DNA of 64,000 bases from Oscillospiraceae bacterium (lineage in GTDB: Bacteria > Bacillota > Clostridia > Oscillospirales > CAG-272): positions 6,990 to 70,989 of the forward strand of contig SVTO01000005.1 in the NCBI GenBank assembly GCA_015063745.1, given 5' to 3'. This document shows positions 35,384 through 42,811 of this stretch, one piece after another; within the stretch, counting starts at the first letter, position 1, and each line of letters opens with the position of its first letter. Position numbers and translations under genes: made by a program. The notes beneath the pieces were generated by a model. The model saw only the letters and a list, made by a program, of their open reading frames with translations. It did no database searches and was not told where the DNA came from.

Positions 35384-36694
35384 TCAGACTTTGCCCATAT
35401 ACCGCTCCACGGCATATTCCATAGCATCCAGAATGTCTATGTCCGAGGTAAAGTCATCCTTGCGCCGGTCCGCACCTTCCGTGTCATCCCATACCGCTTC
35501 GGCCAGACCGGCAGCCAGACGGGGACAGTCCTCCGTGAGATGGAACCGTCCCGCCGTCATCAGGCCGTTGATAAAGGCGATACGGTCGGCAATGGGACGC
35601 TTGGCGCAGTCGGTGATGATCACACCCTCCCCGTGGGGAACAGCCCGGCGGAGTCCGTTGATCAGATACTGGGCTTCGCTGTCGCAAAAAACGTAGCGGA
35701 TGGGCAGGCGGGGGAATTTGCTGCGCAGTCCGGCCAGAAAGGAGAGAAACTCCCTGTTGATGCGTCCGGGATCAATATCCCCCTTGTCCCCCTGCACCGT
35801 ATGCTCTCCGATGGCAATGACACCGCCGGACAGCGGAAAACCCATGGCGGCGAATACGGTTTTGGAGCGGTTTCCGCCGAAGTCCACGCCGATGTTGCAG
35901 AATTTCATGGGCGGCAGACCGGAGAGGGGCAGAATGAATTTCTCCGGTGCATCGGCGAAGGTGCGGTAGATCAGTCCTTCCGCGGCACAGCGCAGACCGA
36001 GTATGTCCCGGCGGTACCAGACGGAGGACTTGTCGTACTGCGCCTCGATTTCGGCAAGCCTGTCCGGCGTGATCACGGGGTTGTCCCGGATGGTAAAATG
36101 GGCGTAATTGCAGAAACCGGGATTCCCGTCGGCGGTATAGGGGTCGATATACTGCCGGTAGATGGAAGCGGAAGGGGATGTGGGATTCAAGTCCCAGAAG
36201 ATTTTCCGGCGGCGGGCGGCGAGGGTACGGTTGAAGGCCTCTTTGATGAAGCTGTCGTGATGGTGGTTGATCTCGGTGGCGATCCACATTCCGTAGGAAT
36301 TGCCGCGGATCCGTTTGCAGGCATCCGCATTTTTGCCGCCGGCGAAGATCACCGCCTTTTCACCGCTTTTCGTCTGAATACGCAGACATTCGTTATCCTT
36401 ATACCGTCCCCATGCGCACCGTCCGCGGAAGATCCGCTCAAGACCCAGACCGTTGCAGTCTCCCAGATTGAGTTTCGCATTGCCGATGGTGGCACCGGTT
36501 GCCAGATGCAGCCTGTCGGGGGCATCCTCCAGCAGAGCGGCGAAGACAAACACATTGTCCACTGTCTTCCCGGCACGCACCGCACCTTCGGCAATGTTCA
36601 CGGTACATTCCATGGCACGCCGCATATAGTCCCGGTGCTTATCCCCGAAACAGAACGGCGGCATATCCGTGTACCCTGCGCACACATCCTCCAT
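35384..36694 (-). CDS. terminase large subunit (PBSX family)
   Basis: 436 aa; Walker A-like EGAVRAGKT; ..IATEINHH.. ; C-terminal nuclease ..GVDFGGNRS......DILDAMEYA. Confidence 0.85.
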   Translation of the reverse strand: MEDVCAGYTDMPPFCFGDKHRDYMRRAMECTVNIAEGAVRAGKTVDNVFVFAALLEDAPDRLHLATGATIGNAKLNLGDCNGLGLERIFRGRCAWGRYKDNECLRIQTKSGEKAVIFAGGKNADACKRIRGNSYGMWIATEINHHHDSFIKEAFNRTLAARRRKIFWDLNPTSPSASIYRQYIDPYTADGNPGFCNYAHFTIRDNPVITPDRLAEIEAQYDKSSVWYRRDILGLRCAAEGLIYRTFADAPEKFILPLSGLPPMKFCNIGVDFGGNRSKTVFAAMGFPLSGGVIAIGEHTVQGDKGDIDPGRINREFLSFLAGLRSKFPRLPIRYVFCDSEAQYLINGLRRAVPHGEGVIITDCAKRPIADRIAFINGLMTAGRFHLTEDCPRLAAGLAEAVWDDTEGADRRKDDFTSDIDILDAMEYAVERYMGKV

Positions 36695-36722
36695 TTTTTC
36701 ACATCCTTTCCCATGATTTCAG

Positions 36723-37109
36723 TTACCCATCCTGCTCCTGACGGAATATATTTGCCCGCAGAGCCATCATTTCCGGACTGGCTTCGGCGGCGGCAAAGCC
36801 CAGCGCGGGATTGGCACGGACATCCTTCCACAGTTCAAAATAGAGCTTGATGGCCTGAATATTCCCGTCCCGCGCCAGGGTCAGCAGCTGCTGCCATATC
36901 TCCGCGGCATATATTCCCGCATATTCCCTGGCCAGCTGCACGACCGCGGATCCGAACGCCGCATCCCGCAGCCACGCAAGCATATCCGTTTCGGATACAT
37001 CGGTCTGTGAGAGGGCGCCCGCGATCTGTTCCCCTGCCGTCAGTCCGCCGAAGCTGTTTTTGACGACGGCATTGGCGGTGTCGATTTGTTTTTCCGTCGT
37101 ATCGCTCAC
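36723..37109 (-). CDS. putative terminase small subunit / HTH DNA-packaging protein (start uncertain)
   Basis: C-terminus ..LARDGNIQAIKLYFELW.. is typical of small terminase/phBC6A51-type HTH proteins. GTG 37109 abuts the GGAGG with no spacer. The upstream ATG 37262 would run through a terminator and a promoter. Confidence 0.45.
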   Translation of the reverse strand: MSDTTEKQIDTANAVVKNSFGGLTAGEQIAGALSQTDVSETDMLAWLRDAAFGSAVVQLAREYAGIYAAEIWQQLLTLARDGNIQAIKLYFELWKDVRANPALGFAAAEASPEMMALRANIFRQEQDG

Positions 37110-37125
37110 CTCCTTTCGTGAAACC

Positions 37126-37155
37126 AGTATACCACAGCGAACATTTGTTTGTCGT
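37126..37155 (-). promoter_or_regulatory. candidate late promoter (extended -10, weak -35)
   Basis: Minus strand acGACA-18 nt-TGgTATACT, ~15 nt upstream of the GAAAGGAGG SD of the small-terminase-like gene. Confidence 0.4.
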
Positions 37156-37235
37156 CCCGTGATTATGGCGGAGGAATGGGGAGAAAGTTGCAGAAAAGTG
37201 GCAGAAAAGGGATGGAAAAATCCACATAATCCCGT

Positions 37236-37282
37236 AAAAACAAAAAACAGCAGGGGATGCATGGTAAAACATCCGCTGCTGT
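37236..37282 (-). terminator. intrinsic terminator between the regulator and the structural operon
   Basis: Minus strand ACAGCAG(C)GGAT-loop-ATCC(C)CTGCTGT followed by TTTTTTGTTTTT. Confidence 0.65.
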
Positions 37283-37307
37283 GGGGGAAAGGGGAGGATG
37301 GGAGGGA

Positions 37308-37696
37308 TCAGGTATTTCTGCCGAAGAGTGCGAGGGTAAAGCGTTCATAGGCTCTGCGTCGGATGCGGTAGAAGGAGCTGCGTTCGACGTGGAGTTCTTC
37401 GCAGAGGTCATCGATACTGACGCGGGAAGATTTAGCGGCGTAAGCGGTAAGGATGGCTTTTTCATCGGGGTCGAGGGTAGCGAGGGCAAACTCAAGGGCA
37501 CGCACTTTTTTGGCAAGTTTCGCACGATTCTCCGCGGCGGTTTCGTTTTCTTCTTCCCAGTCATTCCGCAGAGCGTTTCTGAGGTAGGGTAATTCCTTCA
37601 GCAGAGAGACCGCCTGTTTCTGGAGGGAGCTATTCTGATCTGTTTTTCGGGTTTTCAGGTTTTTTTTGTTACGTTTGTTCTAATGGTGGGACTCAT
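37308..37696 (-). CDS. ArpU/RinA-like (sigma region-4-like) phage late transcriptional activator, interrupted at an A8 tract
   Basis: ATG 37696 (AAAGGA SD at 9 nt) opens a 13-codon frame that ends at TGA just after A8 (37660-37667). The -1 frame is open from there to 37308. It encodes ..LQKQAVSLLKELPYLRNALRN...LDPDEKAILTAYAAKSSRVSIDDLCEELHVERSSFYRIRRRAYERF. Its only canonical in-frame start is GTG 37505 (65 aa). Confidence 0.55.
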
Positions 37697-37740
37697 CTGC
37701 CATTATCCTTTCTTTTGTATTCTTTTCTTTTTTATACTAC

Positions 37741-37754
37741 AGAACATATGTTCT
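37741..37754. promoter_or_regulatory. LexA (Cheo/SOS) box 2, overlapping the predicted transcription start
   Basis: AGAACATATGTTCT, a perfect palindrome with the Firmicute core GAAC-N4-GTTC. Confidence 0.6.
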
Positions 37755-37762
37755 TGTTCTAT

Positions 37763-37791
37763 AGTATAGCACATGGGGATTCTTTTGTCAA
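37763..37791 (-). promoter_or_regulatory. sigma-A promoter of the phage-cluster regulator gene
   Basis: Minus strand TTGACA-17 nt-TATACT. Confidence 0.65.
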
Positions 37792-37797
37792 TACAAA

Positions 37798-37811
37798 AGA
37801 ACAAATGTTCC
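37798..37811. promoter_or_regulatory. LexA (Cheo/SOS) box 1, 6 nt upstream of the -35
   Basis: Minus strand GGAACATTTGTTCT (GAAC-N4-GTTC). Confidence 0.55.
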
Positions 37812-37827
37812 TTTTGGTTTTTCTACG

Positions 37828-37985
37828 GATGGGAGGACTAAATCGCTATTTTCTTTTTTGTCCTTGGCGGACGGATATTCTTTTACTACTCGATGAGTCG
37901 TGCTATCGTACGTTTTTGGTGTCCTGTGCGGACGGCACTTAGAGAGGCCTGCCAAAGCGAGGCCCCTCTAAGAACTCCCCCGCTT
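37828..37985. repeat. left arm of a ~158-bp inverted repeat
   Basis: By hand alignment ~93% identical to the reverse complement of 38549-38706. Contains an internal hairpin TTAGAGAGGCC..GGCCCCTCTAA and the direct repeat GTCCnnnGCGGACGG x2. Confidence 0.85.
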
Positions 37986-38548
37986 TATTAAGAGCTACGT
38001 TGGTACTGTATTGGTTGTTGGATTGGTCAAAGTAGTGGAGGATGCAAATCAGCGCTGACCGCGGTAGGGGTGCATTAGTGGAGGCATACTGTTGGGATAA
38101 GGTATGTATTAGCCGTGTACAGTGATGTGGACTGGGTGCGGTCTCATCCGTGCTAACCGCGCGAAGACTGAATGGCAGTCCTAAGACATGGCGGTCAGCC
38201 GGAATTTTTAATGCACCCAACCTTGTACTGTAGGCGAACCCACTCTTAGTTTGCACAACCTGTCAGCGGTCAAACTCCCCTATTCATCCCGCGGTCAGCA
38301 CAGATAATCCTTTACTCCACTAATTAACCCAACAAACCCACACCCAACAACCTCTCCCTTTACACCAAGCGGTAGCGTAATCCTTCCTGCACGGCACTTC
38401 GTTCTGTGCACAGACCCACTATCAAACCCAACCAACCGTCAACGGTATACCAAAACCCCTGCACCCTTCGGCGGTTAGCCATAATTGAAAAACGAGATTC
38501 CCAAACCCAAAGAAACAGCAAACCCGAACCAAGAAAACCCTTGCACCT

Positions 38549-38706
38549 AAGCGGGGGAGTTCTTAGAGGGGCCTCGCGTCTGCAGGCCTCTCTAAGTGCC
38601 GTCCGCACAGGACACCAAAAACAAACGACAGCACGACACAAAGAGTAGTAAAAAAATATCCGTCCGCCAAGGACAAAAAAGAAAATAGCGGTTTAGTCCA
38701 CCCCAA
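38549..38706. repeat. right arm of a ~158-bp inverted repeat
   Basis: Reverse complement matches 37828-37985. The 563-bp spacer holds nested imperfect palindromes and 6 copies of GCTGACCGC/GCGGTCAGC. Confidence 0.85.
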
Positions 38707-38744
38707 CTGTGGAGAGAAAAATAAAACGAACCCCCGTAACCCCC

Positions 38745-38773
38745 TTGCAAACCCAATAAAAAAATGGTATACT
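38745..38773 (+). promoter_or_regulatory. sigma-A promoter of the kdgK-like/hydrolase unit
   Basis: TTGCAA-17 nt-(TGg)TATACT. Confidence 0.55.
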
Positions 38774-38826
38774 AAAACCAACCTGAATAAAGACCAACCC
38801 CAAGAAAACAACAGGAGAAAAAATAT

Positions 38827-39858
38827 ATGGTAGTATGTTTCGGAGAATTATTGCTTAGACTTTCCCCCGCAGGCCGTGAACGGCTCGTACAGGCGGAAAC
38901 CTTCGAGGTCCGCTACGGAGGCGCAGAAGCCAATGTCGCCGCTGCTGTAACCATGTTCGGCGGAAAAAGCAGTTACATCACAAAAGTCCCGGATTCCGTC
39001 ATCGGTGAAGCCGCCGTGCAGAGTATCAGACGGTACGGCGTCCATACAGACGGTATTGTCCGCGGCGGAGAACGGCTGGGTGCTTATTACCTGGAAAAGG
39101 GCGCATCCTACCGCCCCTCCAAGGTCCAGTATGACAGAAAACATTCGGCTATTGCGGAAGCAAAACGGGAAGAATTCGACTGGAATACCCTCCTCGACGG
39201 CGCGGATTCCTTCTTCTTTACCGGTATCACCCCCGCCGTGTCCGATCCGGAAATTCTCATGGATGCCCTCCGTGTCTGCAAAGAGCGGGGAATCCGGGTG
39301 TACTGCGATTTAAACTACCGCGCCGCCCTGTGGTCCGCAGAAGATGCCGGACGGGTACTGTCCCGGATGATGCCCTACGTCAATACCTGCGTGGCCAATG
39401 AAGAACACGTGCGCCTGCTGTTCGGTATTACGCCCGACGAAGGACTGGCCGAAGAAGAAGAAAGACTCGGCGATATCGGTAAAAAAATGACGGAAAAATT
39501 CGGCTTTGCCAAGGTTGTCCTGACCCTGCGGGAAAGCATCTCTTCCGACGATAACGAAGTCGCCGCTGTGCTGTATGATAACGGCAGACTGTATAAATCC
39601 TCCCGCTATAAGGTACATATCGTTGACCGTGTGGGCGGCGGGGATGCCCTGTCTGCGGCACTGATCTACAGCGAATCTCCCGATGTGGAGAATAAAGTCA
39701 TCGATCCCGCCGACAGGGAAATGCAGATCGACTTTGCCTGTGCCGCCAATGCCCTGAAGCATTCCATCGAAGGGGATATCTGCGTGGCCGATGCCGGAGA
39801 AGTGAAGAAAACCATGGAAATTGCCAGAAGCGGCGGACGGGTCCGTCTGGTGCGCTGA
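38827..39858 (+). CDS. PfkB-family sugar kinase (2-dehydro-3-deoxygluconokinase-like)
   Basis: 343 aa; ..CFGELLLRLSP......Q...F...YGGAEANVA.....G; C-terminal ..DRVGGGDA.. Confidence 0.8.
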   Translation: MVVCFGELLLRLSPAGRERLVQAETFEVRYGGAEANVAAAVTMFGGKSSYITKVPDSVIGEAAVQSIRRYGVHTDGIVRGGERLGAYYLEKGASYRPSKVQYDRKHSAIAEAKREEFDWNTLLDGADSFFFTGITPAVSDPEILMDALRVCKERGIRVYCDLNYRAALWSAEDAGRVLSRMMPYVNTCVANEEHVRLLFGITPDEGLAEEEERLGDIGKKMTEKFGFAKVVLTLRESISSDDNEVAAVLYDNGRLYKSSRYKVHIVDRVGGGDALSAALIYSESPDVENKVIDPADREMQIDFACAANALKHSIEGDICVADAGEVKKTMEIARSGGRVRLVR

Positions 39859-39880
39859 ACGGCAGAAAACGGAGGAAAAT

Positions 39881-42811
39881 ATGGATTTCATCAAAACCAT
39901 CAAAGACAATGCCTATGCTTATGCCAGCATGCCCTTCTGGAGCTGGAACGATAAGCTGGAGGAAGAAGAACTGCGCCGTCAGATCCGCGATATGAAGCGC
40001 CTGGGCATGAGCGGCTTCTTTATGCACGCAAGAGGCGGTCTGGAAACGGAATATATGTCCGATGAATGGTTCGACTGCATCAAGGTGTGCATCGACGAAG
40101 CCAAGAAGCAGGGCATGGAAGCATGGGCGTACGACGAAAACGGCTGGCCCAGCGGATTCGCCGGCGGTAAGCTTCTGAAAGAAAAACGCAAGCAGGCAGT
40201 GGGTCTGCAGTGCGAAGTGGTAAAGACCTTTCCCTGCGAAGAGGATACCCTCGCCGTATATACCCGCGGTGCGGACGGCAGCTTCACACAGGTAAAAGAA
40301 GACTGCGGCGCGGCGGAGTATTACCATATCTACCGTGAATATTCCAACAGCTACGTGGATACCCTCGACGGCGATATCACCAGAGAATTCCTGCAGCTGA
40401 CCCATGAGGAATACAAAAAGCGCATCCCCGCAGAGGATTTCGGCAAGGCCATGCCCGGCTTTTTCACCGACGAACCCCACCGCTGCCGTGACGGCGTTAC
40501 CTATTCCAATACCCTGCCGGAGATCTTCAAGAATACCTACGGCTACGATCTCTTCCCCCACCTGCCTGCTCTGTTCTATGATTGCGAGGGTGCGGAGAAG
40601 TTCCTGTTCGATTACAATATGCTGACGCATAATCTGTTCATCAACAACTGGATCCGTCCCGTATATGAATGGTGCGATGCCAACGGCGTACAGCTCACCG
40701 GACACGGCTGGGAGGAATCCAACCTGAGAGAGCAGATGGTCACTGTCGGCGGTATTATGGAATTCTACGAATACCAGCATATTCCCGGTATGGACTATCT
40801 GTGCCGCAGACTGACCAACGACATCGGCCCCAAGCAGATCGGCTCCGCCTGTGCACAGCTTGGCAAAAAGATGGTGCTGTCGGAAATGTTCGCCTGCTGC
40901 GGCTGGGACGTTTCTCCCCATGAACTGAAACGTATTGCGGACCTGCAGTATGCCGGTGGGGTCAACCGTACCTGCCAGCATCTGTATCCCTACAGCGAAC
41001 GTGGCCAGCGCAAGCGTGACTATCCCCTCCATTTCTCCGAACATAGTCCGTGGCAGGACGGCATGGTGGATTTCGACCGGCACTATAACCACCTCGGCGC
41101 CGCATTGGCCCAGGGTGAAGAATTTGCCCCTGTACTGGTGATCCATCCCATCCACGGCGCCTTCATGAAGTACCGTCGGGATATGGAAGCTATTATGGAC
41201 CTCGACAGAGAAATGGACAATCTGTCCGACCTGCTGGGTGAACATCAGATCCCCTACCACTACGGTGACGAAAACCTGATGAAGCGCTACGCTTCCGTGG
41301 AAGACGGCAGAATCCGTGTGGGCAAGTGCGTGTATGATTATGTCGTAATTCCCTACACCCATTCTCTGGATAAGGAAACCTGCGACCTGCTGAAGAAATA
41401 CATGGCAGAAGGCGGTAAGGTATGGCTGTTTGCCGATACACCCGCACACATGGACGGTGCCAAGGCGGACATGAGCTGGCTGAAGGCGAACATTACCTTT
41501 GAAGAACTGCTGACATCCAGAGATGTGCCCATCGCATCCCCGGACGGCAAGAACGTACCCGCCCTGCGTAAGATGACCCGTGTTCTGGAAGAAGGCAGAC
41601 TGGTGTTTGTAACCAACCTGACCGCTGTCGAACAGGATGGCGTATCCCTCACCTTCCCGGGCACGGAAACGGTATGCGAGATCGATATCGACACTCTGGA
41701 TATCCTTCCCGTATACGGTGAAAAGACCGCAGAGGGCATTACGGTATATGCCAACTTCGACGATACCGAAAGCCACCTGTACCTGATCGACTCCACCGCC
41801 GCCGATATCCTGCCCGGCAAACCCGCCCGTCCGGCTGCATACATCCCGATTCCCGCCAAGGCTGTCTTTGCCGAAAAACCGGAAAACATGATGATTCTGG
41901 ATATGGTATCCCTTGCCAGGGGGGACGGTGCTTACGATGAACCGCTGTCCCTGTACGGCGTGAAGGATAACCTGCTCAGAGAACAGTACGAAGGGGATAT
42001 CCGCCTGAAGTATACCTTTACGGTAGCGGACGGATTTGTACCGGAAAAACTGAATCTGGTGCTGGAAAACATGGGCCAGAAGCGTGTTCTGGTCAACGGC
42101 AAGGAAGTCAATGTTCTGCCCGACACATGGTGGTTCGACCGCAGCTTCCTCGTGTATCCCATCGCGGAACAGGTGAAGGCCGGCGTGAACGAAGTGGAAG
42201 TTTTCATGCGCCACTATCAGAGACCCCATGTATACTATGTTCTGTACAACGCATCCGCCGGTGCACTGCGCAACAGCCTGACCTTCGATACGGAAATCGA
42301 ATGTGCATACCTGACCGGGGATTTCTCCATCCGCACCGATGCACCCTTCACACCGGACATCCGCAACAGCTTTGTCTACGAAGGCAGCTTTGCTCTGGAT
42401 ACACCGAAGACGGAAGTACGCACGGACAATGTGGTGGAAGACGGATTTACCTTCTTCGGCGGCAAGATGCAGCTTGAGATGCCGTACACATGGAAAGCGG
42501 GAGATCCGACGGTACTGCGTCTGAACGGCCGTTTTGCCACCTGCGGCGTAAAGGTCAACGGCGTATATGCGGGAGAAATGATGTTCAAGCGCACCATGGA
42601 TCTGGCGGCATACCTGAAGGAAGGGGAAAACACCATTACCTTTACCATGTGCAACGCATGGCGTAACCTGATGGGTCCCCACCACCATGCAGATGCCGAA
42701 TGTATCGTTCTCGGACCGAGAGAGTTTACCTACGAAAACGAATGGAACGGCAGAGAATGTGAACGATATAAAGAACGCTATTCCTTTGTACGGTACGGCC
42801 TGGTGATGTAA
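39881..42811 (+). CDS. large glycoside hydrolase-like protein (jelly-roll type; family not assignable by eye)
   Basis: ~976 aa; MDFIK....YAS.PFWSWNDKLEEEELRRQI.DMK..GMSGFFMHARGGL.TEYMSDEWF. Start at ATG 39881 with GGAGGAAAAT SD (the ORF track starts at 39821, inside the kinase gene). Confidence 0.6.
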   Translation: MDFIKTIKDNAYAYASMPFWSWNDKLEEEELRRQIRDMKRLGMSGFFMHARGGLETEYMSDEWFDCIKVCIDEAKKQGMEAWAYDENGWPSGFAGGKLLKEKRKQAVGLQCEVVKTFPCEEDTLAVYTRGADGSFTQVKEDCGAAEYYHIYREYSNSYVDTLDGDITREFLQLTHEEYKKRIPAEDFGKAMPGFFTDEPHRCRDGVTYSNTLPEIFKNTYGYDLFPHLPALFYDCEGAEKFLFDYNMLTHNLFINNWIRPVYEWCDANGVQLTGHGWEESNLREQMVTVGGIMEFYEYQHIPGMDYLCRRLTNDIGPKQIGSACAQLGKKMVLSEMFACCGWDVSPHELKRIADLQYAGGVNRTCQHLYPYSERGQRKRDYPLHFSEHSPWQDGMVDFDRHYNHLGAALAQGEEFAPVLVIHPIHGAFMKYRRDMEAIMDLDREMDNLSDLLGEHQIPYHYGDENLMKRYASVEDGRIRVGKCVYDYVVIPYTHSLDKETCDLLKKYMAEGGKVWLFADTPAHMDGAKADMSWLKANITFEELLTSRDVPIASPDGKNVPALRKMTRVLEEGRLVFVTNLTAVEQDGVSLTFPGTETVCEIDIDTLDILPVYGEKTAEGITVYANFDDTESHLYLIDSTAADILPGKPARPAAYIPIPAKAVFAEKPENMMILDMVSLARGDGAYDEPLSLYGVKDNLLREQYEGDIRLKYTFTVADGFVPEKLNLVLENMGQKRVLVNGKEVNVLPDTWWFDRSFLVYPIAEQVKAGVNEVEVFMRHYQRPHVYYVLYNASAGALRNSLTFDTEIECAYLTGDFSIRTDAPFTPDIRNSFVYEGSFALDTPKTEVRTDNVVEDGFTFFGGKMQLEMPYTWKAGDPTVLRLNGRFATCGVKVNGVYAGEMMFKRTMDLAAYLKEGENTITFTMCNAWRNLMGPHHHADAECIVLGPREFTYENEWNGRECERYKERYSFVRYGLVM

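Follow-up and report, generated by a model that had tools for sequence, protein, structure and literature searches.

Large non-coding foldback repeats, probably mobile DNA, form a lineage-restricted family in uncultured ruminant-gut Clostridia

Large non-coding interspersed repeats are rare in bacteria. BOX elements of pneumococci measure about 100-400 bp, and their tandem units lie in the centre, not in arms. To the same general class belong MITEs (miniature inverted-repeat transposable elements) and the repeats built from repetitive extragenic palindromic (REP) sequences, namely REP doublets forming hairpins (REPINs) and bacterial interspersed mosaic elements (BIMEs). Tagged REPs have been described mainly in Proteobacteria (PMC3733652). 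Here we analyzed a stretch of 64,000 nucleotides (the window) from a Clostridia lineage, an Oscillospiraceae bacterium (assembly GCA_015063745.1, contig SVTO01000005.1, positions 6,990 to 70,989 of the forward strand), in which a non-coding inverted-repeat region lies beside a phage-like gene cluster. We found that this region, at 37824-38716 (893 bp), is one copy of a repeat family known from two species of uncultured ruminant-gut Clostridia. The family belongs to the general class of MITEs, REPINs/BIMEs and BOX but is far larger (0.83-1.09 kb) and differently built, and its closest fits in design and behaviour are REPIN/BIME, pneumococcal BOX and the Foldback transposons of eukaryotes. We consider it probable that these are lineage-restricted, non-autonomous, non-coding foldback repeats that live as selfish or near-neutral mobile DNA.

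The window's own genome (G000) is a metagenome-assembled genome (MAG) of 2.44 Mb in 81 contigs, 82% complete. It contained 132 matches to the element, which merged into 29 places covering 18.9 kb, or 0.8% of the assembly. Ten of these places were at contig ends, and pairing of contig ends left about 24 loci. Self-BLAST of the genome identified the element as its only sizeable dispersed repeat, the other repeats being tandem repeats within protein-coding genes. Full copies were 827-1089 bp long. The cores of 11 full copies (689-694 nt) had pairwise identities of 83.8-92.5% (mean 88%), in a star-like pattern. We also found one truncated copy, three arms-only mini-copies of about 160 bp (on contigs C38, C68 and C76), and a nested insert of about 100 nt, common to the copies on C24 and C2, that replaces half of the left arm hairpin. 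The insert variant has therefore reached two loci, and loss of the core has left the arms-only copies. A second, diverged family of the same design, with compensatory hairpin changes, was found on C65. The sequence motifs of the element are close to exclusive to it: GCTRACCGCG occurred 47 times inside elements vs 4 times outside in this genome, GAACTCCCCCGC 37 times vs none, and the terminal motif described below was found only at element copies.

We then compared occupied and empty sites. In the strain GCA_054285045.1 (L017), homology to the window (97.6-98.9% identity in the flanks) stops at 37823 and resumes at 38717, which sets the limits of the copy; 1,849 bp stand in its place. By BLAST, the family was present in only one of the 24 further species searched within the genus, G018 ('Clostridia bacterium RGIG4573', from roe deer rectum); 16 genomes from other families of the order gave no match. 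The two species have three occupied loci in common (C43/C71 with G018 C14, the first C16 copy with G018 C17, and C14 with G018 C131/C64). G018 lacks the element at four G000 loci (C24, C18, C15 and C38). Conversely, G000 lacks it at no fewer than four G018 loci, whose flanks match C50 (two sites), C60 and C28; one of the C50 sites was checked directly and is empty. At least eight loci are thus species-specific. Exact-protein look-ups of flanking genes for further strain-level empty sites returned only element-bearing contigs or contigs of other species. These comparisons show a turnover of copies, by gain and loss, at numerous intergenic sites after the two sister species diverged, and between strains as well.

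The family is narrowly distributed. The G018 MAG was the sole match when the exact arm pattern was searched over 185,579 GTDB species. Its roughly ten copies, about 92% identical to each other, are a shorter version in which the core is 520 nt vs 690, about 170 nt shorter than in G000; the arms likewise consist of G/T-rich tandem units of about 62 nt. A covariance model of the arm module (R1), applied to 300 genomes from 153 genera of the order, detected one further genome, G243, from another family of the order. It has six weak solo modules of about 55 nt (on L123, L125, L127 and L129), each with GTCCYRNGCGGACRGC, a covarying hairpin of 9-10 bp and GA(A)CTCCC, and with neither core nor tandem units. 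This suggested that the arm module is older and more widespread than the 0.8-kb composite. No element match was found in phage and plasmid collections by BLAST or in viral contigs by a pattern scan. A scan of metagenomes with an overly loose pattern returned 74 loci, of which 73 were chance matches in unrelated metagenomes and one, L061, was a real third variant. Beside this variant lies a small converging gene (L061:371-630, JAEIGA010761612.1) whose product has a repetitive tail rich in Glu and Cys.

The copy in the window is not an assembly artefact, because it was recovered in five independent metagenome contigs, in which the printed part was identical apart from a few substitutions in one contig. 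Its layout agreed in most respects with a preliminary description made from the sequence alone. A repeat search placed the inverted arms at 37831-37985 and 38549-38703; they are 155 nt each, 92% complementary and separated by the 563 nt already described, and with gaps allowed the complementarity reaches about 37813 and 38730. The hairpin reported in each arm is present (37938-37972, mirrored in the right arm), as is the internal direct repeat GTCCnnnnnGGACGG at 37860 and 37921, which proved to be the head of a 61-nt tandem unit. The second inverted repeat of the spacer resolved into two pairs, 38048-38064 with 38289-38305 and 38068-38083 with 38315-38330. The spacer was said to hold no credible open reading frame (ORF), and indeed no ORF was conserved among the copies, two of which have no open stretch of at least 60 aa in any frame. 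The composition switch and lower GC, earlier judged by eye, were borne out by a GC skew that runs from +0.35 to -0.48, an AT skew from -0.3 to +0.5, and a GC content of 34-47% in the arms vs about 55% in the flanks. One count had to be amended: of six reported copies of a 9-mer, five are exact matches to GCTRACCGC within 38054-38479, while the copy at 38266 is degenerate. The window holds eight matches to this motif vs 0.94 expected, and in the quasi-palindromic core it stands at 38054, 38152, 38191 and 38291.

Comparison among copies defined the modules. Each arm is made of one to three tandem units of 61-62 nt, the number differing among copies, and each unit contains in order a T-run, GTCC-N5-GGACGG, TTTTACTACTC and a variable tail. 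The outermost half-unit ends with the terminal motif, TTTTTCTCTCTACGGTT..CTAAATCGCT, which was found at the outer ends of most copies. The innermost unit runs into a module that is invariant in the 11-copy conservation profile, consisting of GTCCTGTGCGGACGG, a 13-bp hairpin and GAACTCCCCCGCTT. The conserved arm module thus comprises a GTCC-N5-GGAC palindrome, the covarying 13-bp hairpin and then GAACTCCCCCGC. Covariation was assessed in four variants, namely both families of this genome, the version of the second species and the metagenome variant L061. In the arm hairpin, 97.4% of cells were paired and four positions had changed on both sides, a covariation score reached by none of 500 shuffles. 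The core, dotted with GCTRACCGCG motifs, alternates invariant blocks, including the central hairpin, with mosaic-variable blocks.

In the window copy, the left terminal segment (37824-37859, + strand) is a degenerate half-unit, TACGGATGGGAGGACTAAATCGCTATTTTCTTTTTT, recognized by the recurrent end motif CTACGG/CTAAATCGCT. The left outer arm unit of 61 nt follows (37860-37920, + strand), with GTCCTTGGCGGACGG, then TTTTACTACTC, then the variable tail, and was delimited by the recurrence of GTCC-N5-GGAC every 61-62 nt. The left inner arm module (37921-37985, + strand) holds GTCCTGTGCGGACGG, the hairpin at 37938-37972 and GAACTCCCCCGCTT, invariant in 11 copies. The quasi-palindromic core (37986-38349, no strand assigned) was defined by the conservation profile, the inner inverted repeats and the folds; its conserved blocks include 38024-38064 (..TAGTGGAGGATGCAAATCAGCGCTGACCGCGG) and the central hairpin at 38145-38200. 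It is followed by a C/A-rich right segment of about 200 nt (38350-38548, no strand assigned), within which CGGCGGTTAGCCATAATTGAAAAAC (38469-38493) is a conserved block; in the consensus fold, this segment is either unpaired or paired only locally. The core is asymmetric and can be oriented, because about 200 nt of its right half have no partner on the left. The right inner arm module (38549-38613, - strand) mirrors 37921-37985, as seen in the arm search, the conservation profile and the covariation. The repeat and terminator-like site analysis then gave the right outer arm unit (38614-38679, - strand), with CCGTCCGCCAAGGAC at 38660-38674 and GAGTAGTAAAA at 38643-38653. The right terminal segment (38680-38716, - strand; ..GCGGTTTAGTCCACCCCAACTGTGGAGAG) was placed by end comparison among copies and by the strain without the element.

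We considered how such copies could spread. They would move via single-stranded hairpin or cruciform intermediates, and would be handled by a putative enzyme encoded elsewhere. A single-strand mechanism is suggested by ends that are fuzzy and show no duplication, by a covarying hairpin with a tag and by an orientation that tracks strand bias. The conserved hairpin with its adjacent single-stranded tag resembles the sites of HUH/Y1 enzymes. With regard to orientation, the core followed the sign of the AT skew in the surrounding 40 kb for 15 of 16 G000 copies, and for 12 of 14 it followed the skew measured over the 800 bp downstream. AT skew served here as a proxy, to be read with caution; ad hoc gene callers were unreliable and miscalled a known transketolase gene. 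An orientation bias relative to replication or transcription looks real.

Several observations weigh against mobile DNA of this kind. The orientation bias was weaker in G018 (5 of 7 informative loci) and with the crude gene calls (11-12 of 16). There are no near-identical copies in the own genome and hence no sign of recent transposition. Orthologues at shared loci are about 70% identical vs 88-92% for paralogues within a genome, and shared loci with species-specific sequence types imply concerted evolution or repeated replacement or re-insertion. No target-site duplication was visible in five filled/empty comparisons, of which one paired strains at 98% identity and four paired species at about 75-90%; T/A-rich ends and the divergence of the flanks limit the power of this test. 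The ends themselves blend into T-rich or A-rich tracts that adjoin terminators or -35 boxes, and into terminator T-runs. The core is more conserved than the ends, with the outer arms the most variable part and the inner modules and core blocks invariant in the 11 copies; MITEs do not usually show this pattern, which may indicate a function for the host or as an RNA. In the assembly, which is 82% complete, neither the terminal motif nor genome self-BLAST revealed an autonomous element that shares these ends, and no other dispersed coding repeat was found in this genome. We rejected a Y1/HUH transposase as mobiliser, as Y1 genes, present in 14 of 31 genomes from the genus, showed no correlation with the element, and G243 has no Y1 gene despite its solo modules. 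The sole Y1-like ORF of the own genome (C13:38600-39300, - strand) encodes 197 aa, resembles REP-associated tyrosine transposases (RAYTs) and has a weak match to PF01797 (30 bits). It is flanked by another palindrome family (GGGAGGATCAAGATCCTCCC-CTACGGG) and not by element modules.

The suggestion of a fold-back or nested MITE in the preliminary description was therefore right in part. The element is dispersed, multicopy, modular, present or absent by strain and species, and carries a nested insert, but it is not an ordinary MITE: in place of identical copies with duplications, we found copies that are 84-92% identical, with no duplication and no partner.

The second repeat family is of interest in its own right. 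It forms tandem arrays of units of about 150-170 nt, each with the palindrome GGGAGGATCAAGATCCTCCC followed by CTACGGG, and on the other strand GTAG stands directly 5' of the hairpin, as in classical REPs. It flanks, and has apparently invaded, the region of the RAYT-like ORF (C13:37817-39300), and further sites are at C13:2627-3251, C13:5486-6131, C59:10115-11108 and C59:16665-16907. Judged by sequence features, the ORF and these repeats look like a REP-RAYT (REPtron) system in a Clostridia MAG. Two other traces of transposable elements were seen. At a contig end (C16:48136-48259), one element copy is flanked on its right by the right end of an insertion sequence (IS) of the IS200 type. This end is almost the same in sequence as that of an intact IS200-like copy carried by the second species (L116:1950-2075); the transposase part is missing from the own assembly. 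We treated this IS200-like end as a coincidence and not as a clue to mobility. A single fragment beside a rearranged element copy, an ORF of 161 aa (C36:26911-27396, - strand), looks by its sequence (..GNPYDNAMAENFFSILKTECIH..) like the C-terminal part of a transposase of the IS3 family (rve). We also observed near-identical terminator hairpins, GCCGCTGTACTGAGGAAAG.TTTTCCTCGG.ACAGCGGC with a T-run, at two unrelated genes (C15:6866-6905 and C16:1104-1146), each immediately preceding an element copy, and a similar hairpin, CTGCTGTACC...GGTACAGCAG, at C24:7290-7330. The C15/C16 terminator is either a separate small repeat or one that travels with the element's end.

Other explanations of the family start from a function of the repeats. 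They could be domesticated structural or regulatory DNA, such as a bidirectional terminator or insulator, or a site for nucleoid proteins or gyrase as proposed for BIMEs, kept between transcription units. We regard this as unlikely. Elements fill the whole space between convergent terminators or divergent -35 boxes; the arm units are predicted to be weak hairpin-plus-T sites that resemble inward-pointing terminators; three loci are occupied in both species; and the core has invariant blocks and a biased orientation. However, only one of the 24 other species of the genus has the element, the majority of loci are confined to one species, and terminators and promoters are already in place at the orthologous sites that lack it. 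The hairpins of the arms are weak (4-7 pairs), and purifying selection on random insertions would leave the same placement. Rather unlikely, in our estimate, is that the family is the non-autonomous half of a hairpin-based, single-stranded DNA mobility system new to Firmicutes, a 'giant REPIN' whose large core has a further role. The GTCC-N5-GGAC palindrome, the covarying stem and GAACTCCCCCGC would be recognized by the putative enzyme encoded elsewhere, and the core might act, for example, as a rod-like RNA or a protein-loading platform. Such a system would explain the stronger conservation of the core relative to the ends, the absence of target-site duplications, the agreement of copy orientation with the local strand bias, and the solo modules in a distant family. 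Quite unlikely, to our mind, is that the copies are genes for a large structured RNA, rod-like and about 0.7-0.9 kb long, with one functional strand. The element is predicted to fold as a near-continuous rod on either strand, with RNA z scores of -21 (+ strand) and -31 (- strand), the consensus fold is 98% canonical, and the arm hairpin covaries. The minus strand folds better by 4-41 kcal/mol in all 14 G000 copies (12-41 in all but one), and transition mismatches between the halves are G.U on the minus strand in 245 cases vs 121 on the other. Yet this asymmetry is one observation and not 14, because the copies share ancestry. It also appears with DNA energy parameters (z scores of -19 and -26), and a DNA palindrome alone gives the same fold statistics. 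We dropped its conservation between species as evidence for an RNA, since the corresponding strand in G018 is ambiguous: the junction motif indicates the same strand, while global alignment and the arm-hairpin sequences indicate the opposite one. Nor did the large structured RNA raised earlier find a counterpart in Rfam 15 (including GOLLD, ROOL, OLE and HEARO): a search of 36500-40000 at E values up to 1 gave no match, and neither did one of the full window at gathering score. We found no sigma-70-type promoter inside the element, the flanking promoters face away from it, and the arm units would stop incoming transcription.

Two further proposals concern this locus. The core of 563 bp could be a programmed switch that flips between the 155-nt arms to control the neighbouring promoters, which we consider highly improbable. 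Long inverted arms are suitable substrates for recombination, and the core orientation is opposite between the species at one or more of the three shared loci, whichever way the two versions were matched; this implies inversion or re-insertion over evolutionary time. At the window locus, by contrast, we found one orientation in four independent assemblies (the window, L018, L020 and L021), no internal promoter that could be redirected, and no recombinase among the examined flanking genes; the neighbours are the phage-cluster regulator and kdgK. The presence of about 24 copies at unrelated loci, together with the strong orientation bias within the genome, also argues against frequent flipping. 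Of the earlier idea of an invertible segment, there remains the difference in orientation between species and not a switch at this site. The preliminary description also offered a packaging or replication-related site of the particle locus, or an array of regulator binding sites. A cis site (pac/ori) of the phage-like particle locus, which resembles a gene transfer agent (GTA), or an operator array of a chromosomal regulator would fit the position next to the particle cluster, the repeated 9-11-mers and the GTCC-N5-GGAC palindromes spaced about six helical turns apart. These readings have very little probability. Copies number about 24 and lie at unrelated loci, congeneric relatives lack the element, a strain with the same cluster lacks it, and it is absent from the phage and viral collections. 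Its motifs are nearly confined to elements, so that no regulon exists beyond them. The unrelated loci, and the strain that has the same flanking cluster genes and no element, effectively exclude a role in the phage-like locus. Taken together, we continue to favour selfish or near-neutral, non-autonomous mobile DNA as the probable nature of the family.

The element lies, as first described, between a leftward promoter and the promoter of kdgK, both of which were found by sequence outside its limits. The leftward promoter (37791-37763, - strand; TTGACA-17-TATACT, 11 of 12 matches) belongs to the regulator of the phage-like cluster, is intact and is also present in the strain without the element. 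The kdgK promoter (38745-38773, + strand) is likewise conserved in that strain. The element fills the gap between these two divergent promoters and provides neither. In GCA_054285045.1, the segment that corresponds to 37824-38716 of the window (L017:1698-3546) carries a gene for a secreted protein of 500 aa. This gene is served by a promoter and a terminator of its own, and kdgK and a GH106 gene lie downstream of it. Its product starts with a signal or membrane segment and has no Pfam match. It may be an accessory carbohydrate-utilisation gene that was lost in the window's strain.

These results remove a suspected cis element from the phage-like (GTA-like) locus and show an interspersed repeat between two promoters in its place. 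The element breaks many contigs and therefore matters for the assembly of these MAGs. If a mobilising enzyme is found, hairpin repeat systems of the REPIN/RAYT type would extend to gut Clostridia, and if the core is transcribed, it would represent a new large RNA family.

We finally compared the family with described systems. Like MITEs, it is non-coding and multicopy and has terminal inverted repeats, although the outer ends are fuzzy tandem arrays and not sharp. It differs from them in size (827-1089 bp vs usually below about 600 bp), and we found neither a target-site duplication nor an autonomous IS with the same ends. REPINs and REP-BIMEs with their RAYTs (PMC3116915, PMC3733652) are similar in many ways: two inverted hairpin modules form one large hairpin; they are intergenic, commonly after genes or between convergent genes; they form diverged populations within a genome, with species-specific types at partly shared loci; and they occur as singletons, dimers and clusters, without target-site duplication or a transposase of their own. 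The stems of CGTC REPs are 8-9 bp (PMC3733652), vs 13 bp in the element. As in a REPIN, two inverted hairpin units of the element form a larger hairpin. It is, however, about ten times larger, with a conserved core of 520-690 nt vs a REPIN spacer of 20-100 nt, and its arms are extended by 61-nt tandem units. We found no cognate single-copy RAYT flanked by element modules and no unpaired GTAG/CGTC tag heading the hairpin; GTCCTGTGCGGACGGCA stands in the tag position 5' of the hairpin, and CGTC is present only on the opposite strand, 3' of the stem.

Pneumococcal BOX, to our knowledge, has no large conserved core and no sequence similarity to the family. The likeness of BOX (boxA-(boxB)n-boxC) lies in its occurrence in Firmicutes, its modular build with a variable number of tandem internal units, its complementary terminal modules that form a stable stem-loop, its intergenic location and its lack of a known transposase (PMC3049150). 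BrickBuilt of Porphyromonas gingivalis is a bacterial, species-restricted MITE that is always intergenic, has about 19-24 copies and combines inverted ends with internal tandem repeats (PMC4596501). It is built around a central 23-nt minisatellite with small inverted ends and has bidirectional promoter activity (PMC4596501), whereas in our element no promoter was detected, the tandem units lie in the arms and the centre is a unique conserved core. Foldback and Galileo elements of Drosophila share with the family long inverted repeats made of tandem repeats of variable copy number, fuzzy and variable outer ends, self-folding, and a tendency to internal deletion and inversion (PMC3573991, PMC4079207). 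They are eukaryotic, several kb long, and have P-type or Mutator-like element (MULE)-type transposases and target-site duplications, neither of which we found for the element (PMC3573991, PMC4079207). The family described here thus has an unusual architecture, with Foldback-like arms of tandem units, a REP-like tagged hairpin and a core of 0.5-0.7 kb that is more constrained than its ends.

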